Assembly: GCA_003009755.1 (NCBI GenBank)
Contig: PXUB01000029.1
Location: 3,164 to 67,163, forward strand
From: Thermoplasmatales archaeon SW_10_69_26
Lineage (GTDB): Archaea; Thermoplasmatota; SW-10-69-26
Length of the DNA stretch: 64,000 bases
Direction of reading: 5' to 3'
Shown: in pieces, positions 17,475-53,102 of the stretch
How positions within the stretch are numbered: position 1 is the first letter of the stretch
How the letters are laid out: each line of letters starts with the position of its first letter
Position numbers and translations under genes: made by a program
The notes under the pieces: generated by a model
Seen by the model: the letters and a program-made list of their open reading frames with translations, nothing else
Told to the model about the DNA's origin: nothing
Database searches by the model: none

Positions 17475-17489
17475 GCGATCGCGATCGGC

Positions 17490-28446: not shown

Positions 28447-28667
28447 TGAAGATCCTCTTTTCGACGGGGCCTAGCCGCCTCTCGACCGGGGAAAAGGAAA
28501 ATCGCTGTTAAGGAAAACCCCGGTCGGCAGCGTCCGGAGGCGCCGGTGCCGACCGTCTGGCGCCTCCGGAGAAGACGGATCTTCGATCCGTCCGAAACGC
28601 AGGCCCCAGCGCCGCTGACCTTGGGCGCTGTTGGATCCTCGCGCAGGGCTATGTCCGCCTGACGGGC
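28447..28667 (+). repeat. Multi-hairpin dispersed element, family A, copy 1
   Basis: About 90% identical to the reverse complement of 43812-44129 outside a 95 bp insert; diverged copy at 52944-53102. Confidence 0.88.
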
Positions 28668-28913
28668 AACGACACCATCGCTCGTCGTGGGTCCCCGACG
28701 ACCGCCGCCGTGCCTCCGCGACGAAGGACGAGAACCCACAGGCGCAGGGCAACGCTGACGCCGGAGCCCTCAGGCGTGCTGTCTGCCCCGCCGGCTTCGG
28801 CGCGCCGCCGGCGAGGACCTCCAACATCTCCTACCGCCGTCACGTCGTCGCGGATCAGGGGTGTGAACCCGTTCGCGTCGATGGCCGCACCAGCCGTGGT
28901 ACCGTCCGGTCCG

Positions 28914-30071
28914 TCAACCTCTGTCGACCACGAGCAGGTGGATCGTCAACCGGCCGTGCTTGACGGTCTCGTCCTCGGCGACCGTCAACCCGCGCTCGTC
29001 GGCGATGCGGTGGACGAGGTCGGCTTTCGGCGTTAACAGGCCGATCCTGCCGTCGTCGGCGAGGCTGGCGAGGCCGGCATCGATGAGGTCCCGGTAGGTG
29101 TCCGCGAGCGGGGCCTCGCCCGAGCGGATGCCGTAGGGTGGGTTGGTGGCGACGAGCTCGGCGTCGTCGACGTGGTCGGGAAGTTGGCGGGCGTCGCCGG
29201 CGTAGGTGTCCACGAGGTCCGCGACGCCGGCGGCCTCGAGGTTGCGTTGGGCGCCCTCGACGTGGTTGGGGGCGTGGTCGCCGAGCACGAAGGCGGGCGC
29301 TTGCTCGCGGTCGACGAAGGCCTCCGGCGCGCCCAGGTTGGCCTGGTGCTCGGCGAGCGCGGGGGCGTGCCAGGCGAGCAGCTCGTCGCCGCGCAACCGC
29401 ATCGGGGACAGGCCCAGCGCCCGGCCGACGGCCTCGGTGACGAGCGTGCCGCCGCCGGCCATCGGGTCGGCGAACGGGCCCCTCGCGCGGTGGTCGGCCA
29501 GCTCGAGCAACGCGGCGGCCAGGGAGGCTTTCATGCCGGCGGGGTGGTCGTAGTCGCGGTAGCTGCGTCGGTGCAGGCCGGCTTGGCCGGCCAGGTCAAG
29601 CCACAGGCGGGTGTGGCCGGCGTCGTCCACGTGCACGCGGACGATCGCGTCGGGGGCCTCGAGGTCGACGGGAGGTCGGGTGCCGAGCTCGGTCGCGAGG
29701 TGGTCGTGCAGGCGGTCGCCGACGCGGGCGGCCAGCTCCATGCTGGTGAACTCGTGGTCGCCGGTGCGGTGGCCGCGCACGGCGAAGGGGCCCTCGGCGA
29801 ACCACGGGTCGACGTCGATCTCGTCCACGAGCGCGTCGAGCCCGTCCCAGGGGTCGTCGGGATCGAGCGAGCCGGCGGCCAGGACGAGACCGAGCCGGTG
29901 CAAGGTGCGCAGGCGGCCGATCGCGTCGGCGAGGTCGAGGGGTCCGTCGACGGTGAAGGTGGTCCAGCCGGCGTTGTCGAGCGCGTCGTCGACGGGGGTG
30001 AAGCCGTTGCGCTCGAGCTCGCGGTGGACGACGGGCCGGAGGCCGGGCGCGATCGTGGCGCAGGCGCGCAC
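28914..30071 (-). CDS. THUMP-domain RNA methyltransferase (Trm14/RlmL-like)
   Basis: ATIAPGL...REL, THUMP (FAVRGHR.GDHEFTS), DPMAGGGT, NPPYG; GTG 30071. Confidence 0.88.
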   Translation of the reverse strand: MRACATIAPGLRPVVHRELERNGFTPVDDALDNAGWTTFTVDGPLDLADAIGRLRTLHRLGLVLAAGSLDPDDPWDGLDALVDEIDVDPWFAEGPFAVRGHRTGDHEFTSMELAARVGDRLHDHLATELGTRPPVDLEAPDAIVRVHVDDAGHTRLWLDLAGQAGLHRRSYRDYDHPAGMKASLAAALLELADHRARGPFADPMAGGGTLVTEAVGRALGLSPMRLRGDELLAWHAPALAEHQANLGAPEAFVDREQAPAFVLGDHAPNHVEGAQRNLEAAGVADLVDTYAGDARQLPDHVDDAELVATNPPYGIRSGEAPLADTYRDLIDAGLASLADDGRIGLLTPKADLVHRIADERGLTVAEDETVKHGRLTIHLLVVDRG

Positions 30072-30419
30072 AGCGCGGGCAACGGGGGCCCCGGCAAGAA
30101 GGCCTCGGTTGCGGGGCCCACGATCGTCCGCCTGCACCGCCAAGCGTGCCTGAACCGCCTTGTGCGGGTCCTCGGGGGAGGCGGCTCGGGAGGGCCGAGG
30201 TGACGGCGATCCCGGTCTTCGGTCACCCGACCCTCGTCGGGCTCGCCGCGTTCGCCGGCGTGGGCGTCGTGGCCCTCGTCGGTCGGCAGCGCTGAGGGGA
30301 CCGACCCTCCGCGTAGCCGCGGGCTCGGCCCACGGCCTCCCACCGTCTGCCGTCCTCTCGCGACCTCGTCGCCGGCCAGGACCCGGTGGCTCTTAGGAGG
30401 CGAGGGGATTGGGCCCACG

Positions 30420-30962
30420 ATGCGCGTCGTCGCGACGACGGGGATGCCCGGTTCCGGCAAGTCGTTGGCCGTGGACGTGGCCGAGGAGCTGGGCTTCGAG
30501 ATCGTCGCCATGGGTGATCTCGTCCGGGAGGAGACCTGCAAGCGGGGGCTGCCGGCCGACCCGGAGAGCTTCGGCCAGGTCGCCAGCGAGGTCCGCGAGG
30601 ACGAGGGCCCGGGAGCCTGGGCCAAGCCGACGGCCGACCGCGTGGCCTCGCTCGAGGCCGAGGGCGCGCTCGTCGACGGGCTGCGCAACCTCGAAGAGTT
30701 GGAGATTCTGCGCGAGGAGCTGGGTCGGCACGTGCCCGTGATCGCGGTGCTGGCCTCGCCGGAGACCCGCTACCGGCGCATGCTGGCGCGGGGCCGTGCC
30801 GAGGACGCCGAGAGCGAGGACGAGCTGCACGAGCGCGACCTGCGCGAGCTGGGCTACGGGCTCGGCGACGTGATCGCGATGGCCGACGTCTACGTCGACA
30901 ACGAGGGCGATCCCGCCCAGACGAAGGCCACGCTGCGCGGCGTGCTGGGCGACGAAGGCTAG
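30420..30962 (+). CDS. UPF0200 nucleotide kinase (archaeal dephospho-CoA kinase-like)
   Basis: TGMPGSGKS, MGDLVREE, VDGLR, R.RAED, RD.REL.YG. Confidence 0.85.
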   Translation: MRVVATTGMPGSGKSLAVDVAEELGFEIVAMGDLVREETCKRGLPADPESFGQVASEVREDEGPGAWAKPTADRVASLEAEGALVDGLRNLEELEILREELGRHVPVIAVLASPETRYRRMLARGRAEDAESEDELHERDLRELGYGLGDVIAMADVYVDNEGDPAQTKATLRGVLGDEG

Positions 30963-30980
30963 ATCGAACCCATGGCGTTG

Positions 30981-31253
30981 GGTCTCCCGGAAATCCCGCA
31001 ACGTTTCCATGAACCGTTTGGCATCGTGGTAGGGATTGGTCCCGGGGCCGATATCCGCGACGACCGCCCGTGCAGGCGGCTCGGTCTCTTCGTTCGTCGC
31101 CCCCTCGCTCTGGGGCGACTCCGTCGCCGCTGGGGGTCCCTCCTCTCCGCCGATGCATCCCGCGAGGCCAGCCACCGCGAAAGCGGCGACCAGCATCGAG
31201 AGGCGAAGCGTAGAGAGGGGCCCGCGAGGGCCTCTCGGCCGACCCGTTAACAC
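30981..31253 (-). pseudogene. Internally deleted mini-paralog of the neighbouring S8 lipoprotein
   Basis: LAGC lipobox + RAVVADIGPGTNPYH joined in frame to DAKRFMETLRDFRET; no stop codon of its own. Confidence 0.8.
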
Positions 31254-31347
31254 ATCGTTGCAGAACCGCGCAGCCTCGGACTTGCGTATTCACTGGTCGG
31301 TAGAAGAACGCTGCCCACCTGTCCTACAAAAAGGGACAAGACTCCCC

Positions 31348-32721
31348 TCACGACTCGGATTCATTCGGCCACGGGTACAGTGTCTCGCGGAAATCCCGGA
31401 AAGCCTGCATGAACCGCTTGGCATTCTCGGACTTCTCCGGCAGCTCGCCGTTCCCCAAGACCACGTTCAACGCCCTCTCGGTCTCGTTGTCTCCCACGTA
31501 TCCCCAACCCATCTGCACGTAGGGGCCCGGACCAGCGGGGGTTCTGAGCTGGGTTCCACACTCGTGCCTGTAGTCGCCCGTTTCGAAGTACGTTGCGGAG
31601 TGGTGGATCGCGGTTCGTAGCTCGGGCAACTGCAGGCGTCCGTCTGCCAAGGGCGAGTCCGGGACCGGGCTCCCCTTCCACATCGTGGCGTTCTCCGAGT
31701 TCGAAGGCGGACCAGGGCCCTGAGACCGACGGAGCTCGAGGAGCAGCTCGCCGAGCTCGCCGGCGATCTGAGGGGCCGCGAACGAGGTTCCGGATATGTT
31801 GGATCTTGCGGTCACGTGCGCGGGCTCGGGCAAGCGCTGGGTGAAATCGCCGACCACCTCCGGCGGTTTACCCGCCAGGCTCTCACTGCTATCGCATTCG
31901 GGGTGGGCTCCCCCAGCCAGATAGACCCAGGGTGGGAACTGGACCTCGGCAAGCGGGAACGGGTTCACATTCGGTCGGAACCCGGTCACGACCTGGTTGC
32001 CGGAGAAGGCCACGAACGGGGTCCCTGACTCCCAAACTTCGTACGTCGCCTCTGCGAACTCGCGATCCCCCTGGAAGGCGGTCTCGCTCCGATCCCCGAG
32101 AAGGAAGCTCGAGGTGGCGACGTCCACGTAGGTGAGGTTTCGAGCCATTTCCCGGACTGATCCGCCATCGAGACTGTTGCCATCTTGGACAGCCAGGACG
32201 TAGCAGCGCTGGCAGGCATCGTTCACCGCCCCCGCCGTTGCCGCCCCGTGGGAACCCGTGCCGTCGTCCGAAGCTCGGCCGGTCGGTTGTTCCGAACACC
32301 TTACACCCTGGTCCTCACAGTCCCACGGCCGCGCCGTCCACAGGAGAAGGTTGGTTTGCTCGACCCAGTAGACCTGCCCGCGTTCGTAGGCCTCCCAGAC
32401 CTTCTCGTCGGCTCGGAGGTTCTCGGTGTAGTCCCCCGAGAACGTCAGGTTCAACGTCGGGATCGAGCACGGCAGACCCGGCACGCTGTGACAGGGATGC
32501 GCCGTCCAGTTCGGGCGGCGGAACGCCTCGTGGTAGGGATTCGTGCCCGGCCCGATGTCCGCGACGACCGCGCGCTCGGGCGCATCCGGTGCGGCTTGCG
32601 TATCGTTGGTGGAGGGCTCGACGGGTGTTGTCGAATTGGTCTCCGTGCCGACGCAGCCGCTCAGCGCGGACCCGACAAGCAACGCCGCGATCAGCACAGG
32701 CACCCAGCTCTCGGAGGCCAC
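31348..32721 (-). CDS. S8 subtilase-like lipoprotein
   Basis: LSGC lipobox; VVADIGPGTNPYH, SHGAATAG, FSGN, SGTSFAAP; GTG 32721 inferred. Confidence 0.85.
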   Translation of the reverse strand: MASESWVPVLIAALLVGSALSGCVGTETNSTTPVEPSTNDTQAAPDAPERAVVADIGPGTNPYHEAFRRPNWTAHPCHSVPGLPCSIPTLNLTFSGDYTENLRADEKVWEAYERGQVYWVEQTNLLLWTARPWDCEDQGVRCSEQPTGRASDDGTGSHGAATAGAVNDACQRCYVLAVQDGNSLDGGSVREMARNLTYVDVATSSFLLGDRSETAFQGDREFAEATYEVWESGTPFVAFSGNQVVTGFRPNVNPFPLAEVQFPPWVYLAGGAHPECDSSESLAGKPPEVVGDFTQRLPEPAHVTARSNISGTSFAAPQIAGELGELLLELRRSQGPGPPSNSENATMWKGSPVPDSPLADGRLQLPELRTAIHHSATYFETGDYRHECGTQLRTPAGPGPYVQMGWGYVGDNETERALNVVLGNGELPEKSENAKRFMQAFRDFRETLYPWPNESES

Positions 32722-32895
32722 TGTAGCTCTCAAATAGTTCAAAGAACCGTATGAACTTTCCGTACGACCTCTTGTCGGACGGGATACCCGCCGGGGAGGA
32801 CTGTCCCCGGCGGACCCGTCTCCACGCCTCTGTAGCCCGAACTCCCGGAAGTTGCCCGACGTGGAAGCCATCCACCAGTGAGCCTCGGCCGCCGG

Positions 32896-33711
32896 TCACA
32901 CGGGGTCCGGCACCGGTCGGGCCGCCCGCGCCGTCGACAGCGCCCACGCGACCCCACCCCAGGCGAGGTAGGCCAGCAGGCCGGCGGCCACGAGCGGCAG
33001 GTGGGGCAACGACAGGTGCAGGCCGAGCAGGAACGCGCCGGCGGCGGCCACGCCGTCGGGCACGCTGGCGGCCTGGTCGAAGGCGTCCTGCGGGTCGAGC
33101 ACGAGCGCCCCGCCGACGACGATCGTCGTCACGTTGGCGGGGAACACGGACGCGATCCCGCCCCACACCGGGCCCAGCAGGTCGGCCGCCAGCGTCGCCG
33201 CCAGCACGAGCAAGCCCCCGACGAGCGCCGGCACCCCGTAGCGGAGCACCGCGCCCCCGGCGACCCCCGGCGACCGGGAGGACAGTCCCGGCTGGGCGGC
33301 CCGGGCCCGGCGGACGGCGAGCACCGAGAACGCGTAGGCGAGCCCGACGAGGCCCAGGTTCAGGCCCAAGGCCAACCCGGCCCCGGCCCACAGGTAGGGC
33401 CCCACGATGGCCGCGTAGACCGCCAGGCCGCCGGCCAGCGCCCCCCAGGGGTGATCGGGGCCGCGAGCGAGCAGCAGGGCCAGCGCGGTCGCGTAAACGA
33501 TCACGGCCGCGATCCCGAACAGGGACGAGACCGCCGTCTCGGCCGCGAAGGCGCCGCCGTGCTCGTAGGCGATGACGAACAGGCTGACGGCCGAGGTCTT
33601 CGGCACGGCGCTGACGACCCCGCCGACGCGAGCGTCCACGTTGTCGCTGATCCAGAGGGCGAGCCCGACGACGGTCGCGCCGAGGGCGAAGCGGACGAGC
33701 AGGGCGAGCAC
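32896..33711 (-). CDS. DUF3147-like multi-TM membrane protein
   Basis: Two similar halves (GGVVSAVP / GGIASVFP); hydrophobic. Confidence 0.75.
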   Translation of the reverse strand: MLALLVRFALGATVVGLALWISDNVDARVGGVVSAVPKTSAVSLFVIAYEHGGAFAAETAVSSLFGIAAVIVYATALALLLARGPDHPWGALAGGLAVYAAIVGPYLWAGAGLALGLNLGLVGLAYAFSVLAVRRARAAQPGLSSRSPGVAGGAVLRYGVPALVGGLLVLAATLAADLLGPVWGGIASVFPANVTTIVVGGALVLDPQDAFDQAASVPDGVAAAGAFLLGLHLSLPHLPLVAAGLLAYLAWGGVAWALSTARAARPVPDPV

Positions 33712-33738
33712 GTGGCAGCCGCCTTCAACCAGCCCAGC

Positions 33739-34890
33739 CTAAAGCCTTGGGTCTCGTGCAGTCGAGGGCCGATCGCGGCTCGGGGCGCCGGTCGAGAGCG
33801 CAACGTTTCCCAGCCCACGGCGAGCTCCGAACCCGTGCGAGGCCTGGGCCCGAGTGGGGCTGGCGAGAGACGCGAGGGACCCCCGACCCGTGAGGAGGGA
33901 CCGGCGGGCGAGGAGCCCCCGGGCGCTCACCCCGGCGCCGGTCTGCAGGGCCGTCTCCATGAGCTCGTCGATCTCGGGGTCCTTGGCGAGCTCGTCGGCG
34001 ACGAGCAGCGTCTCGACGGCGCCGAGGTCGAGCGCGTGCTCGACCTGGTCGGGGCCGTAGGTGGCCAGGCCGTCGGTGCCGATGCGTTCGAGCAGCTCCT
34101 CGACGGCTTGGGTCTCCTCGCTGATGCGCGAGGACTCGGCGACCTGTTCGACGAGGCCGCGGTTCATCGCCTCGTGCACGCCCCGCATGCCGGGGTGGGC
34201 GGCGGCCTCGGTCACGATCTGCTCGACGCCCTCGACGGGGTCGTCCTCGAGGTAGGTGACGAAGTGCTCGCGCGCGAACCCGGGCCCGACGATGATCAGC
34301 GGGCAGTCGTCGGGGGCGGTCGTGGCCAGCACGTTGCGGATCGCCTCGTGGTAGGCCTTGTCGTCGCGCTCGGCGTCGTACATCTTGCCGCCGCCGTGCC
34401 GGGTCTGGGTGGCGATCTCGCGGGGCCCGAACTGGTGGAGCACGGCCACGGTGGCCTCCTCGTCGTCCATGGCGACGATCACGACCGTGGGCTCGGTGGT
34501 GGCTTCGACGGCCTCGTCGACGCGTTCGAGCTGGTGCTGGGGCCAGCCCTCGGGTTTGAAGATCTCGACCCAGTCGTGCTCCTCGAGGCTGATCGTGTGG
34601 TGGGTGCCGCGGGCGACCTCCTCGGGGCCTTCCTCGATGACGCCGAGCACGCGCAGGCGCTGGGTGGCCTCGTGGAACTCGACGCTTTCGACGTCGATGC
34701 CGAGGGTGACGGTGACGCGCTGGGATTCCTTGTCGCGCACCATGTCGCGGTCGTCCTCCAGGCGGCGGTCGGTGACACCGCGCACGCGGTCGCCGGGGCG
34801 GATGATGTGGGACAGGTGCCACAGGTCGTCCATCCGGTCGACGCGCAGCTTGATGCGCCCGGTGTCCTTGTCCTGCTCGAGGACCTTCAC
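33739..34890 (-). CDS. pelA: Pelota/Dom34 ribosome-rescue factor with an aberrant C-terminus
   Basis: DDLWHLSHIIRPGD.V.G.T.R, RLRVLG.I, G.HHTI, GPGF.R, ATYG...V..A...GAVE.LLV; homology ends at about residue 321. Confidence 0.9.
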   Translation of the reverse strand: MKVLEQDKDTGRIKLRVDRMDDLWHLSHIIRPGDRVRGVTDRRLEDDRDMVRDKESQRVTVTLGIDVESVEFHEATQRLRVLGVIEEGPEEVARGTHHTISLEEHDWVEIFKPEGWPQHQLERVDEAVEATTEPTVVIVAMDDEEATVAVLHQFGPREIATQTRHGGGKMYDAERDDKAYHEAIRNVLATTAPDDCPLIIVGPGFAREHFVTYLEDDPVEGVEQIVTEAAAHPGMRGVHEAMNRGLVEQVAESSRISEETQAVEELLERIGTDGLATYGPDQVEHALDLGAVETLLVADELAKDPEIDELMETALQTGAGVSARGLLARRSLLTGRGSLASLASPTRAQASHGFGARRGLGNVALSTGAPSRDRPSTARDPRL

Positions 34891-36890
34891 TGGTCCACCT
34901 CGGACAGCGCCTGCTCGTTGATGCCTTTCGAGCGGACGATGCGCAGGTCGCCGGGCGGGAGCACGCGTTGGATCTCCTCGACGGGGACGTCGAACAGCTC
35001 GGAGAGGATCGAGGCGAGCTTGCCGGGGCGGGTGTTGCCGGGCTCGAGCACGAGGTAGCTCTCGGAGTGGTGCTCGACGCTGGCGACGGGGCCGCCCATG
35101 ATCTTGAGGTGGCCATCGTGGCGGACGCGGCCGACCCCGATCTGGACCGGGGCGCGGATGTGGTTGCGGGTGCCGCGGATCATGAACGAGCCGGTGGGCA
35201 GGTACTCGCCGGACTCGGGCGTCTTCGAGACCTGGGGTGGGGTGACCCAGTAGGCGGTGCCGCGGCCGACCTTGTTCGTCCAGGCCTTCGAGTAGGAGAC
35301 GGCGAACTGGGCGGCCTCGGTCAGGGCTTCCTCGGGCACGTCCCCGTCCTCGGCTTTGATGACGACGCTGGGGGCGCCGGGTTCGCTGCTGTGGACGTAG
35401 CGGTCGTCGTTCTCGAGGTGCTTTTTGACGACCTTCTCGTTGCTCTTGGCGTCGCGGCCGCCGACCACGAGGTGGCCGGTGGAGGCCTTGGTCCAGCGGA
35501 ACTTGTCGAACCAGAACTGCTGGGTGGGTTCGGGCTCGGCGCGCTTGGCCTCGAGCTCCTCGACGATCTCCTCACCGCGCTCCTCGACCTCCGTCAGGCG
35601 TTGCTTGGTCTCGGCCAGCGCCTTGCGAGCGCCGTCCTGCTTCTCGCGCAGCTCCTTGGCTTCCTCGTAGAGGCGCTCGGCGTTGCGGCCGACGTTGTCC
35701 TGGAAGTCGACCTCGATCTCGTGCATGGTACCCTCCCGGTCGGGCATGGCGAGCACGATGGCTCCGTTCTCGGGCTTGGGCTGGCTAAGACGGACGTTGC
35801 CGGATTCGATGTCCTCCTCGAACACCGGGCCCCAGCCCTCCTCGTCGTGCAGCTCGCGCGTGTGCTCGAGCACGGCCTCGACGTCCTGGAAGTGGGCGTA
35901 CAGCAGGTCGCCGTGGTCTTGGCTGATCTCCTCCTGCTCGGCGAACCCGCGGATCCGGTCGCCGATGTCCTCGATCTGACGCTCGAGGCGCTGTTTCATC
36001 TCCTCGACCTCGTCGAGGCGCTGGTCGCCGATGCCCTCCTCGACGTGGGGGCCGAACAGCTCGTCGTGGGCGGCCGAGAGGGTCTCGACGCGCTCCTGCT
36101 CGAGGTGGCTGTGGATCTCCAGGGGCAGCGGGGTGGCGGTCAACGGCTCGCCGTCCTCGTCGCGCACGAGCACGGGCTCGGGGTCTTCGACGACCTGATC
36201 GATCATGTCCATGACCTCGCGCGTCACGGTGGCCAGATCGTCGCTGGACAGCTCGTCGGGTTCGGCGGTCTTGGGCACGCCGGTCCGCTCGCAGACCTCC
36301 TCGGCGTAGACGGGGCCGAGGTTGCCGAGGCTGGACAGGGTGCGCACCATGTCGCTGTCGGAGTCGCGCAGCACCTCGATGTACTGGGGCTCGGTCGCGG
36401 TGCGCGGGTTGATCTCGCTGGGCGGGTAGCGCCACTCGGCGTTGGGCCGGATCTCGCGCTCGGCCCACTCGGTGTGGATCAACGGCAGCACGATCTCGTC
36501 GTCCTTGGCGAGGATCACGTTGCCGTCGTGGAAGCTCTGGACGATGATCTTGTACTCGCCGTCGCGCTTGCCGACGGTGAACTCGAGGATGCGGTCGAAC
36601 TCGTGTTGTTGGACGTCGAGCACGCGGCCGCCGGCGATGAACTCGCGGACCTGCTTGCTGAACTCGGGCGGTTGCTTGGGGTTGTCGCGGGAGCGGGTGG
36701 TGTGCGTGATGTAGCGGCCGAGGCCGATGGCGACGTCGTAGCGGCCCTCGCCGGGGGCGCGGAACGACAACAGGACCTCGTCGCGGCTGGGTTGGTAGCA
36801 CTTGTCGAAGTTGCCGTCCACGAGCGTCTGGAACTCCCGTTCCAGGCACAGCAGGTCGAAGCCGGACATCTCGCGCTTGCGGTTGGTCAC
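34887..36890 (-). CDS. rqcH: Archaeal Rqc2/NFACT ribosome quality-control factor
   Basis: MSGFD...L..E, HDGNVIL, WFDKFRW......LVVGGRDAKSNE.VVKK, VSKTPESGEYLPTGSFMIRG. Confidence 0.93.
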   Translation of the reverse strand: MTNRKREMSGFDLLCLEREFQTLVDGNFDKCYQPSRDEVLLSFRAPGEGRYDVAIGLGRYITHTTRSRDNPKQPPEFSKQVREFIAGGRVLDVQQHEFDRILEFTVGKRDGEYKIIVQSFHDGNVILAKDDEIVLPLIHTEWAEREIRPNAEWRYPPSEINPRTATEPQYIEVLRDSDSDMVRTLSSLGNLGPVYAEEVCERTGVPKTAEPDELSSDDLATVTREVMDMIDQVVEDPEPVLVRDEDGEPLTATPLPLEIHSHLEQERVETLSAAHDELFGPHVEEGIGDQRLDEVEEMKQRLERQIEDIGDRIRGFAEQEEISQDHGDLLYAHFQDVEAVLEHTRELHDEEGWGPVFEEDIESGNVRLSQPKPENGAIVLAMPDREGTMHEIEVDFQDNVGRNAERLYEEAKELREKQDGARKALAETKQRLTEVEERGEEIVEELEAKRAEPEPTQQFWFDKFRWTKASTGHLVVGGRDAKSNEKVVKKHLENDDRYVHSSEPGAPSVVIKAEDGDVPEEALTEAAQFAVSYSKAWTNKVGRGTAYWVTPPQVSKTPESGEYLPTGSFMIRGTRNHIRAPVQIGVGRVRHDGHLKIMGGPVASVEHHSESYLVLEPGNTRPGKLASILSELFDVPVEEIQRVLPPGDLRIVRSKGINEQALSEVDQ

Positions 36891-36942
36891 GGACGGCACC
36901 TCCGGTGGAGGGCCCAGGCGGGCCGACGGGCGGTTGAGAGGG

Positions 36943-37146
36943 TCACTGGAAGACCATCGGGCCGACGACGAGCAGCAGGAAGCCGAGCGCGAGCAGGCCG
37001 TAGGTGATGTACATCATGCGCTTGCGCTTGTTCTCCTGCTCGGCGACCTCGTCGGCGCATTCGTCGCTGCAGGTCTCCTCGCCGAAGGGGATGGCCTTGT
37101 CGCACGTGACGCAATGGGAGTGGTTGGCTACCTTGGGGACCGCCAT
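36943..37146 (-). CDS. DUF2116-family Zn-ribbon membrane protein
   Basis: H.HC..C.KAIP..E..CS.EC followed by a TM helix. Confidence 0.88.
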   Translation of the reverse strand: MAVPKVANHSHCVTCDKAIPFGEETCSDECADEVAEQENKRKRMMYITYGLLALGFLLLVVGPMVFQ

Positions 37147-37193
37147 CGATGGCAGTGAGCCCGCGGTCTGCCAAAAAGGCTGGGTTGGCGTAC

Positions 37194-37880
37194 TCAGGGT
37201 GCTTCGACGACCGTCGTGCCCTCGAACGCGACCCCGTCGACGGCGCTGGCGACGTTGGCTTGGTCGTCGCCGTCGACGACGCGGGTCTCGATGCCGGAGC
37301 GTTGGATGATCTGGGCGGCCAAGGGGTCGACGACGGCGGAGTGCCCGGCCTCGCGGCCGGCGCCGGTGATGCCGACGAGGTCGCTGAACGAGATCTCGTC
37401 CAGGCGGTCGGCGTCGGGATCGCGCTTGGGGTCGCTCGTGTAGACGCCGTCGACGTTCGTGACGACGACGAGGCGCTGGGCGCCCAGGCGTTCGGCGGTC
37501 ATCGCGGCGACGGCGTCGGTCGTGTGCCCAGGGTGGGTGCCGCCCATGCACACGCGGTCGTAACTGCGGAGGGCGGTGGCCGCCTCGTCGAAGTCCTCGG
37601 CCGGTTTCGGATAGGCTTGGTCGCCGAAGGCGGCGACGAGCAGGCGAGCGTTGGCGCGCGTGAGCTGGATGCCCAGCTCGTCGAGGCCGGATTCGTCGAG
37701 CCCGAGCTCGCGGGCGGCCGAGATGTAGGTGCGGGCGGCCGCGCCGCCGCCGACGACGATCGCCAGCGGTGCCTCGATCCGCTCGAGCGTGGAGGCGAAG
37801 GCCTCGATCGGTGGGGCCTTCACCTGCTCGCCGGCGAGCACGCTTCCCCCGACGGAGACGACGACCGGTGGCTGGGACAC
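37194..37880 (-). CDS. pyrH: UMP kinase
   Basis: VVSVGGSV, VVGGG..AR.YI, GGT.PGHTTDAVAA, NVDGVYTSDP; GTG 37880. Confidence 0.96.
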   Translation of the reverse strand: MSQPPVVVSVGGSVLAGEQVKAPPIEAFASTLERIEAPLAIVVGGGAAARTYISAARELGLDESGLDELGIQLTRANARLLVAAFGDQAYPKPAEDFDEAATALRSYDRVCMGGTHPGHTTDAVAAMTAERLGAQRLVVVTNVDGVYTSDPKRDPDADRLDEISFSDLVGITGAGREAGHSAVVDPLAAQIIQRSGIETRVVDGDDQANVASAVDGVAFEGTTVVEAP

Positions 37881-38395
37881 GCGTGGTCGTATCGGCCGGG
37901 CCAAGAAAAGACTGCCGGCCTCGCGCCGCTCGTCGTGGTATCCGGTCGAGATCTCCTCGCACGCTCCACCCCCTCCTCCACCCACCGCGCAAACGATGCA
38001 ACAAGGGACGGCTGGGCAAGCCGACCGAACGCCTCAGCCGGCGTCTGGAACGCCTCCCGGGCGAATCCAGGACGAGCCGTTCCTGGCTCATTCTCCGAGA
38101 ACAACTACAACAGAGCCGGCGACCACCCGGGAAGCCAATTGCCGGGGGACCTCCATTGACTCCGGTCACCTCGCAACGCCAGGACCCGCCAGCCGTTCAC
38201 CGAGGAGCTCAGAGGCCCACGCGCGATCCACCGGACGATGCTTCTCAATCGCTATCCAGGGGACATGACCTATCCGATGCGGGTCCGCCAGAGAGATCGT
38301 TTCGGGAGCGACCTAACGAGTCCCTGGTCTTTATTCGGCTGAGTCCGGTGGCTGGAATGTGAGGGGTCGTACCCATTCGCTATATCGTTCTCATC

Positions 38396-39391
38396 TTGGT
38401 CACGATTGCATTCATTCCGGGGCTCGCCTCGGCGGCCAATCACAGCGACGAGCTCGGGACCTTCGAAAGGGAGGGGGATCGGTTCGTCGGAGAGGAGACT
38501 GCGTTCGCTCTCGACGAGGACCTTCCCGGGATACGGAACCTGACGGACCAGACCACGGGCGAGGTCGTCTTCGACGAGGTTCGTCTGGCGGAGCCGGGGG
38601 CGATGGACTGGACGATCGGCTTCGATACTTTCACGCTCTCGGCTCAAGACCGCCCGGGCCTGCTCATGGTCCAGGACGACGCCCCGCCCACCTTCCGCGC
38701 CTGGTTCCCGGGAGACCAGCAGGGAGTCTGGAACCTTTCCCTCGCGCCCGGGATCTCGGTCCAGCCAGTGGACGAGAGCAACCAGAAGACGCTGATGTCC
38801 ACCCACGACACATCCTACGAGCTGGACTTGACTAGCAGCAGGATCACCTACCTCGTCGGACAGGGGATCGAGTACGACCCCCCAAAGCGGGTCTTCACCG
38901 TTCGCGACCTCTCGCTCGTATACCAGGCAGACCGCGTCACCGTCGAGGGCGACGACGAGGGCTGTCGGGAGGGGCCGGTATGCATGCGGTTCCAGGGGTT
39001 CCCAAAGAACCCGGCGCCCGGGGATTCGGTTCAGCTCCGCTTCGAGAACGAGGGAACCGACACGCATGGCCTCTGGGTGGCCGCCAGCGAACCCCTCGAC
39101 GGGACGAACGCGTCCCCAGAGGAGGCGATCGCAAGCATCGAGGAGGTACCTCCCGGCCAGACAGCATCCGTCAACTTCACCGTTCCCGACGGCGCCGAGA
39201 GACTGTACCTGTGGGACGACCGAGACGACCACGAACAGCGGGGGGAATCTCTGCGGTGGGAGCTCGAGAGCGCCTCGCCCGGCGGAAACTCCGGAGAGGT
39301 GGAGGATCGGACGAGTACCCCTTCGGCGGGCTGGCTTGCGTTCGCTGTCTCCTCGATCTCGGCCGCGATCCTCCGGACCCGATGGACGTAG
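38396..39391 (+). CDS. Secreted/cell-surface protein with a cupredoxin-like domain and a C-terminal sorting-type TM
   Basis: VQLRFENEG...H...PPGQTASVNFTVP motif; C-terminal TP..G + hydrophobic + basic tail. Start uncertain: TTG 38396, while the signal peptide seems to extend upstream without an in-frame ATG/GTG. Confidence 0.75.
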   Translation: MVTIAFIPGLASAANHSDELGTFEREGDRFVGEETAFALDEDLPGIRNLTDQTTGEVVFDEVRLAEPGAMDWTIGFDTFTLSAQDRPGLLMVQDDAPPTFRAWFPGDQQGVWNLSLAPGISVQPVDESNQKTLMSTHDTSYELDLTSSRITYLVGQGIEYDPPKRVFTVRDLSLVYQADRVTVEGDDEGCREGPVCMRFQGFPKNPAPGDSVQLRFENEGTDTHGLWVAASEPLDGTNASPEEAIASIEEVPPGQTASVNFTVPDGAERLYLWDDRDDHEQRGESLRWELESASPGGNSGEVEDRTSTPSAGWLAFAVSSISAAILRTRWT

Positions 39392-39881
39392 GTCTGGTCC
39401 CGACAGGATCCCCCAGCATAACCGCCATACCCAGTGGCCTCGATTCCAGATGCAGGGGACTTGGGTGGTGAGAGCGAGCCGGGTCCGACGCGTGGCGCAA
39501 GGAGTGGGAGATCCACGCAGGTGCCTACAATCGTTACATCAACTGGTCCCTCCAAGCGGTCGGAGGTTCCCCCTCGGGCGCCACCCTCATCGGAGTCTAT
39601 CTATTCCTCCGGGGCGGCGCCACCACAGCGTCACGGACACCGGTGGCCCCGTTCGTGGCTGGCCCTGCTGGCGTCGGGGTTTACTTCTATAGCCACGATA
39701 TCGGTTACGAGGCTGGTGTGAATCTCGCCGAATGCGGGGTTATCATCAATATCCCTGCTGATTTCGTCGAAATCGGGGGCTAGGCTGGCGAGACTCCGCT
39801 GAAGTAGCCGGGCAGGCGGCTGGGTGGCTCCTGCCATCTTCCCCAGTTTTCATCTTTTTTCCATTCTCGTTACTCGTGTGA

Positions 39882-40415
39882 ATGGTTCGGCCTGAATTGA
39901 TCCTCGCTGTCGCAACCATCCTGGCCTCAGCCGGATGCATCGGCACCCCGGGCCAGGATACGCCAGCGGAAGCCGAACCCGCGGACGTCAACCAGGATCG
40001 AACCACGAACGCGAGTCGGCCCTCGAACACGACGATCGCCAAGCAGACGACGATCCTCGTCGGCTTCGAGGCGACCACCTGCGCCGACCAGGTTCCGCGG
40101 TGTGGCGGCGCGTTCTGGTCTTCCCAGACGCGCCCCTTCACCGTGTTCGGCATAACCGGCGAGAACGCGACCGTGAACGTCACCGCGAACTGGACCCCGA
40201 GCACACCGCTCTCGGAGACGCTGCGCCTCACCGTCACGAACGCCGAAAACGAGATTCTGGTCGACGAGGCGGGACCCAGCCCGCTCGCCGCGACGTTCCA
40301 GGCCTCGGCCGGCGAGTGTACGGCCTCCGTCGGAACCGATCCCCAACCCCTGGCCAGCGCGACCGTGGACCAGGAGATCGCCTACGCGATCCGCGGCCCC
40401 GTCGACGAACGCTGA
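39882..40415 (+). CDS. Hypothetical lipoprotein
   Basis: Signal peptide with SAGC lipobox; beta-rich body. Confidence 0.8.
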   Translation: MVRPELILAVATILASAGCIGTPGQDTPAEAEPADVNQDRTTNASRPSNTTIAKQTTILVGFEATTCADQVPRCGGAFWSSQTRPFTVFGITGENATVNVTANWTPSTPLSETLRLTVTNAENEILVDEAGPSPLAATFQASAGECTASVGTDPQPLASATVDQEIAYAIRGPVDER

Positions 40416-41556: not shown

Positions 41557-41967
41557 GTGTCGAGGAACCGTTCGGGAGGCTCGGCCGGAGGAGCTCGTCG
41601 ATCGATCGTCCCTCTCGTGCTGGCGATCGGTCTCGTCGCGATGACGATGGCGCCCGTCGCGGCCGCCGACCACCAGGACATCGTGATCAGCATCTCCGTC
41701 CCGGGGGGAATAGTATGCGTCGGGACGATCGAGGACGATCAGACGGTCGGTCAGGCGGACCGCCCCGGCCCGAACGCGACCGTGACGGTCCAGGGCGAAC
41801 CCGTGGTCGCCTCCGAGGGCCCCGAGGGAAGCACGGTCTGGGTGAGCACGCCTTCGTTCGGCCTCGCCGTCGACGGGTCGGTCACCGCGGAGGCGACGAC
41901 CCCGAGTGAGACGGTGTCGTCGACCACGGTCGTCGACCCCGTCTCCGTCGGTGTCTGCATCCGATAG
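41557..41967 (+). CDS. Small secreted protein
   Basis: RR + hydrophobic + AAA signal peptide; two Cys. Confidence 0.7.
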   Translation: MSRNRSGGSAGGARRSIVPLVLAIGLVAMTMAPVAAADHQDIVISISVPGGIVCVGTIEDDQTVGQADRPGPNATVTVQGEPVVASEGPEGSTVWVSTPSFGLAVDGSVTAEATTPSETVSSTTVVDPVSVGVCIR

Positions 41968-42018
41968 CGACCGTCGCCCGAACAACCTTGAAGCCCCCGA
42001 CCCCATGCCCGGCCACGG

Positions 42019-43233
42019 ATGTCCTCGACCGTGGCCTGGACGCGGAAGCTGCTGCGCCACTACTACCGGCGCAACCCCGTCTACCTGCCGCCGCGGTTCG
42101 GCCGGCGGGAGTACGGGTTCCTGTTCGTGGGCCAGGACGGCATGAAGCGGCACACGACGTTCGCCACGCGAGAGGACATCGGCGAGTTCCTCGCCGAGCG
42201 CGGTCCCGCCCACGCCTACTACTCGGCCGCCTACTACGAGCAGCCCGAGGCCTCCCGCATGGACGACAAGGGCTGGCTGGGGGCGGATCTCATCTTCGAC
42301 CTCGACGCCGACCACATGCCCGGGCACGAGGAGATGACGAAGGCCGAGATGCTCGAGCAGGTGCGCGTCGAGGCCCTCAAGGTCGCCGAGGAGTTCCTCG
42401 TCGGCCACTTCGGGTTCGATCCCGAGGACATGAAGATCGCGTTCAGCGGGGGACGAGGCTACCACATCCACGTCACCGACCCCGTCGTGCACGAGCTCGG
42501 CAGCGCCGAACGGCGCGAGATCGTGGACTACGTGACCGGGAACGGGATCGCCATCAGCCGGCTCGTGCGCCGGGAGACGTTCAGCACCGAGGAGGTGGCC
42601 GGCCACGTCGACGAGAAGCAGCGCTGGCGGTTGCCGGCGGTCGGCGACCCCGGGTGGGAGGGGCTGTTCGCCCGCGAACTCGTCGACCTGTTGGACGAGT
42701 GGCGGCAGCTGCCGCGCGAGGAGGCCCTCGAGGCGTTCGGCGACCTGCACGGCGTCGGCGACAAGCGGGCCGAGAGCCTGGTCGACCAGCTCGACGAGGA
42801 CGCGATGGCGGCCGTGCGCGAGGGGCGGGTCGACAGCGTGCCGGCGCTGGCGAACAAGACCGTGATCGAGGCGGTGACCGACCGCGTCCGGCGGGCGGCG
42901 ATCGGGGAAGCCGACGAGCCCGTGACCGCCGACGTGCACCGGCTGATCCGGTTGCCGGGCAGCCTTCACGGGCGCACGGGGCTGCGCGTGACGCCGTTGA
43001 CGCTGGAAGGACTCAAGGACTTCGACCCGCTGGTGGACGCGATCGCGTTGCCCGCGAAACCCGTCACGCTGGAGCTCGAGGAGCCCGAGACCGGTCAGAT
43101 CGGTGGCGAAAGCTACGATCTCCAGCCTGGCACGCACGAGGTGCCCGGCTACCTGGCCGCCTTCGTCGCCTGGCCCAGCGTAGGGACCACCAAGCCCGAC
43201 CGACCCGTCGTCCGGGAGGGAGCCCCAGCGTGA
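42019..43233 (+). CDS. priS: DNA primase small (catalytic) subunit
   Basis: REYGF, YYSAAYY..P, LIFDLDADH, FSGGRGYH.H, D..VT.DVHRLIRLPGSLHG. Confidence 0.96.
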   Translation: MSSTVAWTRKLLRHYYRRNPVYLPPRFGRREYGFLFVGQDGMKRHTTFATREDIGEFLAERGPAHAYYSAAYYEQPEASRMDDKGWLGADLIFDLDADHMPGHEEMTKAEMLEQVRVEALKVAEEFLVGHFGFDPEDMKIAFSGGRGYHIHVTDPVVHELGSAERREIVDYVTGNGIAISRLVRRETFSTEEVAGHVDEKQRWRLPAVGDPGWEGLFARELVDLLDEWRQLPREEALEAFGDLHGVGDKRAESLVDQLDEDAMAAVREGRVDSVPALANKTVIEAVTDRVRRAAIGEADEPVTADVHRLIRLPGSLHGRTGLRVTPLTLEGLKDFDPLVDAIALPAKPVTLELEEPETGQIGGESYDLQPGTHEVPGYLAAFVAWPSVGTTKPDRPVVREGAPA

Positions 43234-43778
43234 GCGACGACGAGGACGGCGTCAGCTACGAGACGATCAAAAGCCACCTCGACCAGCAGAAGCGCTCCAA
43301 CAAGCCGATCGAGGTCGCGGCGACGTTCTACGAGGAAGCCCAGGCCTACCTCGACCAGCTGCGGGAGGAGTACGAGGACGTGCACGCCCGCGATCCGGCC
43401 AGCAAGGAGGTGCAGATCCTGCGCGACGAGCTGTTCCGGGCCCGCGAGGCGCTCAACGACCTGTTCGACCTGCGCGCCAAGCGCATCCTCTCCCACACCT
43501 TGTCCGAGGACACCGAGATCGACGAGGCGGACCTGACGGCCGAGGAGCGGCTGCTGTTCGACAACGTGCAAGAGCAGGTGAGCAGGACCCGCGAGCAGGC
43601 GCTCGAGCGCGCCAAGCGCAGCAGCGAGCTCCGGGTCGTGCGCGTGCTCGAGGACATGCCCTCCTTCACCGGCGCCGATTTGCGCATCTACGACCTGGAC
43701 GCGGAGGACATCGTGTCCCTGCCGGGCGAGACGGCCGAGCTGCTGATCGGCGAGGGCAAGGCCGCCGAGCTCGGCTAG
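43230..43778 (+). CDS. GINS subunit (Gins51-type)
   Basis: GTGA overlap with priS; R..RI, L..EE...F, C-terminal B-domain VRVLED.P.F.G.D...Y.L..EDIVSLP...A.LLI. Confidence 0.85.
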   Translation: MSDDEDGVSYETIKSHLDQQKRSNKPIEVAATFYEEAQAYLDQLREEYEDVHARDPASKEVQILRDELFRAREALNDLFDLRAKRILSHTLSEDTEIDEADLTAEERLLFDNVQEQVSRTREQALERAKRSSELRVVRVLEDMPSFTGADLRIYDLDAEDIVSLPGETAELLIGEGKAAELG

Positions 43779-43811
43779 GGCGCGGGACCCACGCGGGTCC
43801 GCTCGCGTCGA

Positions 43812-44129
43812 AGCTCGTCAGGCGGACATAGCCCTGCGCGAGGATCCAACAGCGTCTAAGGTCAGCAACGCTGGGGTCTGCGTTTCGGACGGATCGAAGA
43901 TCCGTTCTCTCCCGAGGCGCCAGACGGTCGGCACCGGCGCCTCCGGACGCTGGCGACCCCAGTTTTCTTCCGGAGATCGGCGACACCGTTCGGTCTCCGG
44001 AGAGGCCGAAGCTCCGCTTCGGCCGGATTGCGAGGGTTCCTGCCGCCAGGCGAACCCTCCATCTTAACAGCGAAGATTTCTTTTCCCCGGTCGAGAGGCG
44101 GCTGGGCCCCGTCGAAAAGAAGATCTTCT
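43812..44129 (-). repeat. Multi-hairpin dispersed element, family A, copy 2 (with a ~95 bp hairpin insert)
   Basis: Reverse complement matches 28447-28667; begins at the ybaK stop codon. Confidence 0.88.
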
Positions 44130-44604
44130 ATTCGACGAAGTCGCCCTTCGAGACGTCGGGCAGCTTGCGGAGGTCGGCGGCCTTGATCTCGAGCATGACG
44201 TCCTCGCTGCCGCCGCCGACGTACACCATGTCCTGGTCGAGCACGCGCTGGTCGATGAGCGTGCGGAGCGGGCGTTCGTGCCCGATGGGCGGTACGGCGC
44301 CGACGGGGTAGCCGGTGAAGGACTGGATCTCGTCGGGTTCGGCCAGGCGCACGTTCTCCTCGGCGTCGACGCTGACGTGGTCGGCGACCTTCTCGAGCGA
44401 GACGACGTCGGGGCCGCGCACCAGCACGACCACGGGCTCCTCGTCGGCGACCATGAGCACGATGCTCTTCCCGATCTGGTCGGCCTCCACATCGAGGGCG
44501 TCGGCTGCGGCTTGCACCGTGCTGGCATCCTGGAGCTGCGCGTGGAGGTCCGCCTGGATGCGGAGCTCCTCCGCTGTCCGTTCGACGTCCGAGGAGTCTC
44601 GCAT
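44128..44604 (-). CDS. ybaK: YbaK/EbsC aminoacyl-tRNA deacylase family protein
   Basis: TV..AA.AL.V...QIGKSIV, TGYPVGAVPP.GH, YVGGG. Confidence 0.9.
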   Translation of the reverse strand: MRDSSDVERTAEELRIQADLHAQLQDASTVQAAADALDVEADQIGKSIVLMVADEEPVVVLVRGPDVVSLEKVADHVSVDAEENVRLAEPDEIQSFTGYPVGAVPPIGHERPLRTLIDQRVLDQDMVYVGGGSEDVMLEIKAADLRKLPDVSKGDFVE

Positions 44605-49796: not shown

Positions 49797-49847
49797 CGCC
49801 GCGACAGGGGTGGACGGTCAAAAGCCTGCCGGCAGCGGCGAACCGGA

Positions 49848-50354: not shown

Positions 50355-50515
50355 CTGTAAGGATAAGAAATGGGGGGGACCACCATGTACGCGAAGGGAC
50401 GCCAGGGCACAAAGGCGAGCAGCTGCCGTGACAAAGCCGCCCGGCGGCGAGTACACAGGCCCTTCGTGGCCTTGGCGATCCTTCGTGTCCTTCGCGGCCC
50501 TGCTTAACGAGACAG
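50355..50515 (-). mobile_element. MITE-like element, family B, copy 2
   Basis: Reverse complement of 15573-15736; lies at the 5' end of the FKBP-like gene. Confidence 0.75.
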
Positions 50516-51964: not shown

Positions 51965-52276
51965 GGGCTGGGCGTCCTTGTCGCAGTGGGACCCTGGTCT
52001 GGGCAACGGGGCTGGCCTGGACAGCCGGTGGCGTCCCGAGACGCGGGGAAGATCGTTCGCGTCTCGGCAAAGGACGACCGCCGAGCGGTCGTCCGGACAG
52101 GCCTCCGCAGGTTCGATCACGAGAGCCGAAGGGGGGTGGCCCGGCTCTCGTGAGAGCCCGAGGGCGGCGAGGTCGCTCGCCTTCGGGCGGATCGCCAGGG
52201 CGCGGCGGCCACGGTTCGGGCCTTGGCGAGAGCAGGTCCGGCCGGAGGGAGGACGTGCGGAATCCTGCCCCCTGCA
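51965..52276 (+). pseudogene. tRNA-Leu pseudogene split into three pieces by two hairpin inserts
   Basis: 51965-52033 (leader + nt 1-51), 52098-52116 and 52260-52276 match consecutive parts of 52300-52402. Confidence 0.9.
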
Positions 52277-52317
52277 TCGCAGGGTTCTTCCAACGCGCTG
52301 GGCTGGGCGTGCTTGTC

Positions 52318-52402
52318 GCAGGGGTACCCTAGTCTGGGCAACGGGGCTGGCCTTAAGAGCCGGTGGCGCAGGCCTCCGCAGGTTCGAATCCTGCCCCCTG
52401 CA
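52318..52402 (+). tRNA. tRNA-Leu (TAA)
   Basis: GCAGGGG/CCCCTGC-A acceptor, CTGGC-CTTAAGA-GCCGG anticodon arm, long variable arm, GCAGG-TTCGAAT-CCTGC T-arm; CCA not encoded. Confidence 0.95.
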
Positions 52403-52520
52403 CTGACGGACTCGAGCCAAGGATGGCGGGGCAGGATGAGAACCCTGGTTCGATCCGGAGATTCGGCGGAGAAGGGGATGAATCTGCGGAGCGGCCGAAC
52501 GAGCACCGCGAGTTCGGCCA

Positions 52521-52550
52521 GAATCCTGCCCCCTGCACTGACGAACTCGA
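52521..52550 (+). repeat. Direct repeat of the tRNA-Leu 3' end plus trailer (att-like)
   Basis: GAATCCTGCCCCCTGCACTGACGAACTCGA, 29/30 identical to 52386-52415. Confidence 0.9.
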
Positions 52551-52683
52551 CGAGGGCCCGCACCCCCTTCCGAGGCCGTTTCGACGAGAGCATCGCCTCC
52601 CGAGGCGGTCTTCTCGGCTGAGACGAGCTGTGGGACAGGACCGAGAAGCGAAGGCTTATGAACGGAGCGCGCGTGGCCCTCGC

Positions 52684-52878
52684 ATGGCCACCGGCAAGGT
52701 CGCGTTCTTCCACGATCGGAAGGGCTACGGTTTCATCGAGACGAGCAGTGCCGACGACGACGTTTTCTTCCACGCGGAGGACTTCGACGGCCCCGACCCC
52801 GAAGAAGGACAAGAGGTCGAGTTCGAGATCGAGCAAGCGGACCGCGGTCCCCGGGCAGTGAACCTCGAGTTCGCGTAG
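52684..52878 (+). CDS. csp: Cold-shock domain protein
   Basis: MATGKV.FF...KGYGFI...DVFFH....GPRAVNL. Confidence 0.95.
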   Translation: MATGKVAFFHDRKGYGFIETSSADDDVFFHAEDFDGPDPEEGQEVEFEIEQADRGPRAVNLEFA

Positions 52879-52943
52879 CGGCTCCTTCCGTCCGTCTCGG
52901 CCTTCCCGCCGGCCCCTCCCGGGTGCCCGGTGCGGCTCCCATC

Positions 52944-53102
52944 GAACATTTTTCGTTCCGAGGGCCTTGGCGTCTCTCGACAGGGTGAAAAAGACGGATC
53001 TTCGGCAACGAGGAAACCTCCTCGGGAGCGACCCAGCCGCCAGCGTCGCTGGTCTCGGGCGCGGTTGGATCCTCGCGCAAGGCTCCCTCGGCTTGACGGG
53101 CA
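52944..53102 (+). repeat. Multi-hairpin dispersed element, family A, copy 3 (diverged, internally deleted)
   Basis: Shares CTCTCGAC.GGG.GAAAA, GACGGATCTTCG, CCAGCG.CGCTG, GTTGGATCCTCGCGCA and TGACGGGCA with 28447-28667. Confidence 0.75.

Follow-up and report, generated by a model that had tools for sequence, protein, structure and literature searches.

In bacteria, small structured repeats between genes have been studied thoroughly, but in archaea they have barely been described outside Haloquadratum. A 64,000-nt stretch of contig PXUB01000029.1 from Thermoplasmatales archaeon SW_10_69_26 (positions 3,164 to 67,163; the whole stretch is referred to as the window) contains three hairpin-rich copies of one element, lying after the genes mdh, ybaK and csp, and raises the question of what kind of element this is and what it does between these genes. 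The window has a G+C content of 69%, codes for archaeal proteins, among them GINS51 and DNA primase, and has a sequence that is known from halite metagenomes only; the closest named homolog of its mdh belongs to a metagenome-assembled genome of Candidatus Thermoplasmatota.

The answer favoured here, held tentatively and with slightly less than even confidence, is that the element is a new low-copy, non-coding, mosaic intergenic repeat with a bidirectional terminator and a role as a substrate for recombination. Its copies have a common fold, are patchily distributed among relatives and stand at both ends of an inverted 15-kb segment, and haloarchaeal termination motifs are found on both of its strands. 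The evidence for these statements is presented below, and is followed by an assessment of the alternatives.

Copies, anatomy and fold of the repeat

A sequence-only reading of this DNA had proposed three related copies, and their relatedness was confirmed by a repeat search, which gave arm pairs of 168 nt (89% identity) and 52 nt (94%) between copies 1 and 2 and of 71 nt (76%) between copies 2 and 3. In addition, the 16-mer GTTGGATCCTCGCGCA occurs exactly three times in the window. The mutual identity of copies 1 and 2 (86-94%) is far above that of either to copy 3, and a profile built from copies 1 and 2 alone recovers copy 3 with an E value of 1.5e-12 and a homolog in the related locus L161 with an E value of 8e-9. 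All three copies reach further in the 3' direction than had been proposed, with ends at approximately 28701, 43781 and 53138, and the family size ranges across copies from ~190 to 350 nt.

28448-28701, plus strand: copy 1, full element; its 5' edge is the end of the homology between the preceding stretch W and the related locus L162, at 28447/28448
43781-44128, minus strand: copy 2, full element, reading from 44128 to 43781
52944-53138, plus strand: copy 3, short form, between csp and adh

Copy 1 lies between the convergent genes mdh (+) and a THUMP methyltransferase gene (-) and is separated from the mdh stop codon (28239-28241) by the 197 nt of W. Copy 2 lies between the convergent GINS (+) and ybaK (-) genes and occupies their entire spacer, from the ybaK stop codon (44129-44131) to 2 nt before the GINS stop codon (43776-43778); the L161 homolog, separately, also fills an entire convergent spacer. 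The neighbours of copy 3 are csp (52684-52878, +) before it and adh (53286-54314, +) after it. The 5' end of the element abuts a stop codon in copy 2, in relatives L158 (ybaK) and L161 (mdh) and in one contig of a metagenome, X1 (GTGTAG directly followed by AGCATTTTTC), and the 5' flanks of the four known sites (CCCCCT, CGAATA, CCCATC and CGTGTA) are not conserved. The element had also been said to lie always downstream and in the sense of a gene. This description fits the three sites, but as a rule it is nearly uninformative, since two of the sites lie between convergent genes, where it holds automatically; only copy 3, with csp and adh both on the plus strand, is informative, and this single case proves nothing about the rule.

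Each copy is composed of four parts, namely a 5' module, a helix (P2), a 59-nt core, and a copy-specific stretch with a terminal hairpin (Pt), while further hairpins (Hd, He and others) are optional. The 5' module reads GAAGATC(C/T)TCTTTTCGAC in copies 1 and 2 and GAACATTTTTCG in copy 3, which does hold this module. The 5' arm of P2 (CUCUCGAC...) is located within the 5' module and the 3' arm (...UCGG(G/C)AG) directly upstream of the core; through P2, the 5' module is thereby joined to the region around the core, and the hairpins are parts of a single folding unit, not independent structures in a row. P2 comprises 10+2 bp in copy 1, 12 bp in the L161 homolog and 7+3 bp in copy 3. In the long copies, a further helix, B (GGGGCCU/AGGCCCC), closes a multibranch loop that encloses P2, Hd and He.

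28448-28517, plus strand: copy 1, 5' module, with AGATCC and TCTTTTC (28456-28462)
28466-28472, plus strand: copy 1, 5' strand of helix B
28479-28491, plus strand: copy 1, 5' arm of P2
28492-28517, plus strand: copy 1, A-rich loop of P2; the opposite strand reads T4C twice
28518-28530, plus strand: copy 1, 3' arm of P2
28534-28569, plus strand: copy 1, hairpin Hd
28574-28592, plus strand: copy 1, hairpin He
28601-28607, plus strand: copy 1, 3' strand of helix B
28518-28607, plus strand: copy 1, segment from the 3' arm of P2 to the 3' strand of helix B
28606-28664, plus strand: copy 1, 59-nt core, CCAGCG...GTTGGATCCTCGCGCA...CCTGACG
28665-28681, plus strand: copy 1, copy-specific 17-nt stretch
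28682-28701, plus strand: copy 1, terminal hairpin Pt
43816-43874, minus strand: copy 2, core
43888-43906, minus strand: copy 2, hairpin He
43911-43946, minus strand: copy 2, hairpin Hd
43950-43962 and 44085-44097, minus strand: copy 2, arms of P2
43968-44062, minus strand: 95-nt insertion of three hairpins within the P2 loop, in copy 2 only
52974-52985 and 53017-53028, plus strand: copy 3, arms of P2, following a 5' module with CATTTTTC; Hd and He are missing
53040-53098, plus strand: copy 3, core
53099-53114, plus strand: copy 3, copy-specific stretch
53115-53138, plus strand: copy 3, terminal hairpin Pt

The core is the best-conserved part, with 55/59 identical positions between copies 1 and 2 and 48/59 between copies 1 and 3, in agreement with the conserved 3' block that had been noticed from the sequence. 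The stretch of 16-20 nt that follows TGACG is different in every copy, and the Pt hairpin, built around CGTGGG..TCC, has stems that vary among copies 1, 2 and 3 yet still pair. The gain and loss of whole hairpins had likewise been recognized, and corresponds to the three-hairpin insertion in copy 2 and to the lack of Hd and He in copy 3. The element begins with GAAGATCC... and ends with ...CCCGACGA; as had been stated, neither terminal inverted repeats nor flanking direct repeats (target-site duplications) are visible at the ends or flanks of the three copies. No relationship in sequence exists between the 5' module and Pt, which show only the partial complementarity GGGGCC/GGTCCCC.

The earlier list of at least four stems was correct in part. 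The stems GGAGGCGCC/GGCGCCTCC and GACGGATC/GATCCGTC are real in copies 1 and 2. The CTTTTC/GAAAAG stem competes with P2 and is better taken as runs of T and A. The CAGCGC/GCGCTG stem does contain a change from C-G to T-A in copy 2, but is not retained in copy 3 or in L161, and it competes with an alternative, local hairpin, CAGC-NNN-GCTG. The key helices P2 (CUCUCGACCGGGG/CCCCGGUCGGCAG) and B had been overlooked.

Copy 1 and the L161 homolog, folded independently, gave the same multibranch architecture. In the alignment of copy 1, L161 and copy 2, four helices comprise 41 pairs with 90% of the cells paired, and six pairs are changed on both sides. This number was reached by four of 500 shuffles, and sliding the partners by 1-3 columns left 0-1 such pairs. 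The compensatory changes are distributed over P2 (two, G-C to C-G), Hd (three) and He (one). Furthermore, a strain variant of copy 3 (L135) contains two changes in the 3' arm of P2, with pairing kept in both. Judged from these substitutions, the helices are kept by compensatory change across lineages, and with the common fold and the lack of an Rfam match the description of the element as structured and previously undescribed is upheld. The counts of G-U and A-C oppositions give no clear functional strand.

An open frame runs over most or all of each copy on both strands, which is common at 69% G+C. In the sense frame, copies 1 and 2 differ by six amino acids per nine base changes. A peptide profile of the antisense frame found no relatives among 5.8 billion proteins, and that of the sense frame returned only two low-complexity matches among 1.84 billion representative proteins. 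There is thus no coding signal, and the element is non-coding. In searches for known RNAs, the only Rfam report in the window at the gathering score was tRNA-Leu, and the match to a known element that might have explained the repeat was not obtained; at E<=10 over copies 1 and 2, only chance-level matches to unrelated families were found.

Several candidate identities were considered and rejected. The top match within the element, Hammerhead_HH9, scored 15 bits against a threshold of 52, and the CUGANGA box of a hammerhead read at CUGACGAG is not conserved in copy 1 or copy 3. C/D box, H/ACA and tRNA-derived readings were rejected on sequence. An integron attC site is a single imperfect hairpin bounded by RYYYAAC and GTTRRRY that follows a cassette open reading frame; GTTGGAT in the element matches GTTRRRY, but the inverse core is missing, and instead of one hairpin there are several, spread over 190-350 nt beside housekeeping genes. 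A miniature inverted-repeat transposable element (MITE) was rejected for the lack of terminal inverted repeats and of a target-site duplication. Nothing similar was found by blastn in plasmid and phage collections. Exact scans with 19-mers in genome contigs and with 16-mers in metagenome contigs gave chance matches only, in the latter case among the matches listed, and a pattern scan of viral contigs gave 13 matches, approximately the chance expectation.

Distribution among relatives and the inverted segment

Relatives were reached via the orthologous loci of ybaK and mdh homologs. After ybaK, the element is absent in L159, L149, L150-155, L166 and L160, in which ybaK is 95, 90, 87, 85 and 67% identical. 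In L156-158 (ybaK 84% identical), only the 5' module is present, starting at the ybaK stop codon, and in L158 the 70 nt between two convergent genes consist of this module alone. At the mdh locus, L160, L162, L163 and L165 lack the element. A full-length homolog is present in L161 (mdh 87% identical), where it starts at the mdh stop codon (L161:896-1131) and is 60% identical to copy 1. The family is therefore patchy at orthologous sites. The window and 103 kb of related loci yielded no further copy. With a covariance model of the 5' domain (R1), only copies 1 and 2 scored strongly; reverse strands and other hairpin arrays also reached ~30 bits, and the model is consequently not specific enough for remote members.

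The 3' flank of ybaK is a hot spot for change. In two relatives it contains the remnant of an IS1595-family transposase (L159:885-1235 and L158:700-1565), which in L159 begins directly after the ybaK stop codon.

The abundance of the element was estimated from metagenomes. In X1, the depth is 11 over the flanks and ~100 over the core, which corresponds to approximately ten genome-equivalents of the core, and many contigs match only ~28597-28673 before continuing into unlike sequence. The same pattern, a match to the core that gives way to unlike sequence, is seen in many further contigs of four metagenomes. Community contigs that enter the core from upstream do so through the same non-coding P2 arm and not from a gene end. 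The three-hairpin insertion of copy 2 has a depth in X1 of ~80 versus 11 over 43976-44043, and its hairpins also occur elsewhere in the metagenome. The depth of the copy 3 type of core is only ~2 times the background, so that this type is nearly single-copy. These modest depths, together with the lack of further copies in the window and in the 103 kb of related loci, indicate a low-copy family.

Copies 1 and 2 delimit a rearranged segment, which was identified by tblastn synteny and gene tables. The features concerned are as follows.

28702-43780, no strand assigned: ~15-kb segment between copies 1 and 2, inverted relative to L160-L163
28251-28447, plus strand: W, a hairpin-rich 197-nt stretch between the mdh stop codon and copy 1

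The gene order in L160 is mdh+, GINS-, primase-, ..., AA-kinase+, DUF2116+, NFACT+, Pelota+, AAA18-, ybaK-, and in L161, L162 and L163 mdh+ is likewise found near GINS- and primase-. The corresponding order in the window is mdh+, copy 1(+), THUMP-, AAA18+, ..., Pelota-, NFACT-, DUF2116-, AA-kinase-, ..., primase+, GINS+, copy 2(-), ybaK-. With respect to four relatives, a 15-kb segment is thus inverted, and copies 1 and 2 are the inverted repeats that stand at its two junctions. One inverted copy at each junction of a flipped segment is the pattern expected from recombination between inverted repeats.

W is found in L162 (L162:1429-1629) in reverse-complemented form, directly after the GINS stop codon, with 75% identity over 207 nt on the minus strand. 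From these sequences, W seems to be a second kind of module that is located after stop codons and switches partner genes.

Function of the repeat and alternative explanations

In Haloferax volcanii, transcription is terminated in vivo by three kinds of signal, namely T-stretches with a final C (95%), AGATC located downstream (11-27%) and hairpins (59%) (PMC7237163). These motifs are present in the element on both strands. On the sense strand, AGATC and T4C open copies 1 and 2 and T5C opens copy 3; on the opposite strand, T4C or T5C is read from the A-rich loop of P2. With T4-5C stretches on both strands and GC hairpins, transcription from either side should stop inside the element, and the 5' module is a putative two-way terminator. 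The resemblance to haloarchaeal terminators (PMC7237163) thus extends to the AGATC and T4-5C after the stop codon, the T4-5C on the other strand and the GC hairpins. However, ordinary terminators do not show 76-94% identity from one unrelated locus to another, and have neither a 59-nt core nor a 140-nt multibranch domain.

In the mechanism that we propose, the cassette would serve as a spacer between genes, with its 5' module at or next to a stop codon, and transcripts arriving from either side would be terminated within it. The hairpins, acting as RNA or as DNA, would be kept by selection for 3'-end formation or stability. The copies would also provide dispersed homology, being gained and lost at orthologous sites and recombining where they are inverted. 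New copies would most plausibly arise by recombination, by gene conversion or by mobilization in trans by an enzyme encoded elsewhere; the RNA-mobilized element that had been named as a candidate is neither favoured nor disfavoured by these results. If this mechanism is correct, the element would be a candidate portable two-way terminator for haloarchaeal genetics in view of the termination motifs on both strands. The element is also a defined foldable cassette with helices kept by compensation across lineages. Its presence at either end of a 15-kb inversion, in an uncultured member of the Atacama halite community, is a clear case that is relevant to the way in which such genomes are rearranged.

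A number of observations weigh against the terminator and recombination reading. The core, the copy-specific stretch and Pt are unnecessary for a terminator and are not explained by it. The fold is based on only four independent sequences, and the structure was derived in part from one of them. The helices of copy 2 contain eight mismatches (four in P2, two in helix B, and one each in Hd and He), and several of these are A-C in the sense strand, which implies that selection there is weak or acts on the other strand; copy 2 may be decaying, or recombinant. The inversion depends on the contig as assembled, and the inspected unitigs alone do not link both halves of each copy. In addition, the opposite orientation of W in L162 demands at least one more rearrangement or transfer. 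Finally, no empty site with well-conserved flanks was found at the loci compared, and insertion as opposed to divergence in situ is for this reason not proven.

Among known repeats, REP/BIME in enterobacteria and BOX in Streptococcus pneumoniae are short non-coding intergenic repeats of hairpin modules in variable number. They are located after genes, often between convergent genes, and have been associated with the formation of 3' ends or the stability of mRNA as well as with rearrangements of the genome; in BOX, the ends are similar in inverted orientation. The present element resembles them as a mosaic of palindromic units in intergenic 3' regions. It differs in its archaeal host, in its approximately ten copies instead of hundreds, and in its long-range helix, its non-palindromic core of 59 nt and the stretch specific to each copy. 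The high copy number of REP/BIME is not reached, a cognate RAYT-type gene such as REP/BIME have has so far not been seen with it, and it does not show the terminal inverted similarity of BOX. The PATEs and SMRs of Haloquadratum walsbyi are transposase-free repeats of a halophilic archaeon (PMC3119063). The element shares with PATEs the lack of terminal inverted repeats and of target duplication, the hairpins, the heterogeneous copies and the internal deletions between short repeats (PMC3119063); their similar near-terminal palindromes, terminal oligonucleotide and IS605-type kinship were not found in it in a comparison with the PATE description only (PMC3119063). The element works most like the REP/BIME or BOX mosaics and the PATE/SMR repeats. 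It does not fit the definition of any of these classes, in view of its low copy number and the lack of matching end palindromes and of terminal inverted repeats, and no RAYT or transposase link was found in the sequences covered.

The main alternative, which we regard as rather unlikely but deserving of attention, is that the copies are structured RNA genes or RNAs derived from 3' untranslated regions. The multibranch scaffold and the core would then form the body of the RNA and the stretch of 16-20 nt a guide-like or seed segment for specificity, and the copies would be a paralogous family of non-coding RNAs rather than a selfish or purely structural spacer. This explanation stays alive because the terminator reading leaves the core and the copy-specific stretch with Pt unexplained. 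It would account for the core being the most conserved part and the most abundant in the community, and for a variable stretch of constant length being followed by a hairpin whose stems covary among copies 1, 2 and 3. The compensatory changes in P2 and Hd between copy 1 and L161 and the sense-strand G-U pairs in the same two helices are also consistent with it, as is the expression of hundreds of intergenic small RNAs by the halite community (PMC7002113). Yet no archaeal promoter-like TATA box or transcription factor B recognition element (TATA/BRE) is visible upstream of the core, and the strong 5' T-stretch should halt most transcripts from the upstream gene. Furthermore, the specific stretches have no partner in the window beyond chance, copy 2 gathers A-C mismatches in the sense strand, and absence from most orthologous sites would be unusual for a housekeeping RNA. 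The bolder proposal of a new archaeal class of structured RNA with a guide-like layout, serving an RNA-guided protein or RNA- or single-stranded-DNA-based copying to sites after stop codons, is improbable; a partner protein for an RNA made of the core and specific stretch would, if it existed, raise the importance of the element considerably.

The variable stretch directly 3' of a conserved structured scaffold also recalls omegaRNA and the right ends of IS200/IS605 elements. The sequence-only reading had named a non-autonomous, omegaRNA-like derivative of this kind as a candidate. Such an element would be akin to the PATEs of Haloquadratum, with the 3' block as the right end or omegaRNA-like scaffold and the variable stretch as a former guide, and would be mobilized by a TnpA encoded elsewhere. 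The absence of terminal inverted repeats and of target duplication, the hairpin-rich and heterogeneous interior and the conserved end are indeed features of PATEs (PMC3119063), and internal deletions between short purine-rich repeats could yield copy 3 from a form resembling copy 1. We nevertheless consider this origin unlikely. No TnpB-like RuvC or zinc-ribbon motif was found in the 64-kb window, which is also devoid of any tnpA/tnpB signature, as are the called genes in the 103 kb of related loci; none of the copies abuts tnpA or tnpB, the upstream genes being mdh, ybaK and csp. The hairpins at the two ends are unrelated instead of being similar near-terminal palindromes, the 5' flanks show no conserved oligonucleotide among the four sites known, transposon-associated RNA families are unmatched in Rfam, and the copy number is low. 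Unlike an omegaRNA guide, the variable stretch is followed by a family-specific hairpin, Pt. A further explanation would be that there is no family, and that copies 1 and 2 arose as one segmental duplication from the inversion while copy 3 and L161 are similar to them through shared GC-rich hairpin motifs. The much closer relationship of copies 1 and 2 (86-94%) than of either to copy 3 would be expected on this explanation, and other hairpin arrays with similar units do occur, such as GGCCGGATCTCCGATCCGGCC at 3745-3765 and the insertions in a tRNA-like copy at 51985-52277. However, copy 3 shares 48/59 core positions and has its P2 arms and its Pt arranged as in the other copies, the profile from copies 1 and 2 detects copy 3 (E 1.5e-12) and L161 (8e-9), and many core-matching contigs in four metagenomes diverge into unlike sequence. 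The profile and the metagenome contigs already contradict this explanation, and it is accordingly very improbable.

Other repeats and hairpin arrays in the window

The tRNA-like copy at 51985-52277 is a second tRNA-Leu-like sequence just upstream of the true tRNA-Leu(UAA) at 52318-52403. It shares an 18-nt leader and both tRNA halves with the latter, is split by insertions of 65 nt in the variable arm and 149 nt in the T-loop, both hairpin-rich, and received no call from ARAGORN. It is a tRNA with several introns, or else a degenerating duplicate into which hairpin modules have moved. A repeat of the final 23 nt of tRNA-Leu (GAATCCTGCCCCCTGCACTGACG) follows 136 nt downstream (52387-52410 and 52523-52545) and resembles an att-type scar left by an integrated element.

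A hairpin array at 3600-3890 on the minus strand, downstream of tRNA-Pro, contains units like those of the present family and scores ~30 bits with R1. Its units are GGCCGGATCTCCGATCCGGCC, which is He-like, and CCGAGACC...GGTCTCGG. Such units may thus be shared more widely within the host genome.

A second non-coding repeat of 129+ nt occurs at 15589-15717 and 50372-50500, in inverted orientation and 34.6 kb apart, with 95% identity; it is unrelated in sequence to the present family and has no Rfam match at the gathering score. A CACAGAG-rich inverted pair of 43 nt (93%) at 17487-17529 and 18949-18991, with arms 1.4 kb apart, may represent the ends of a small insertion sequence or MITE. Finally, tandem repeats of 39 nt (13 codons) at 10227-10580 lie inside a long open reading frame that is rich in Gly-Asp/Thr-Gly-Asp motifs and probably encodes a repetitive surface protein.

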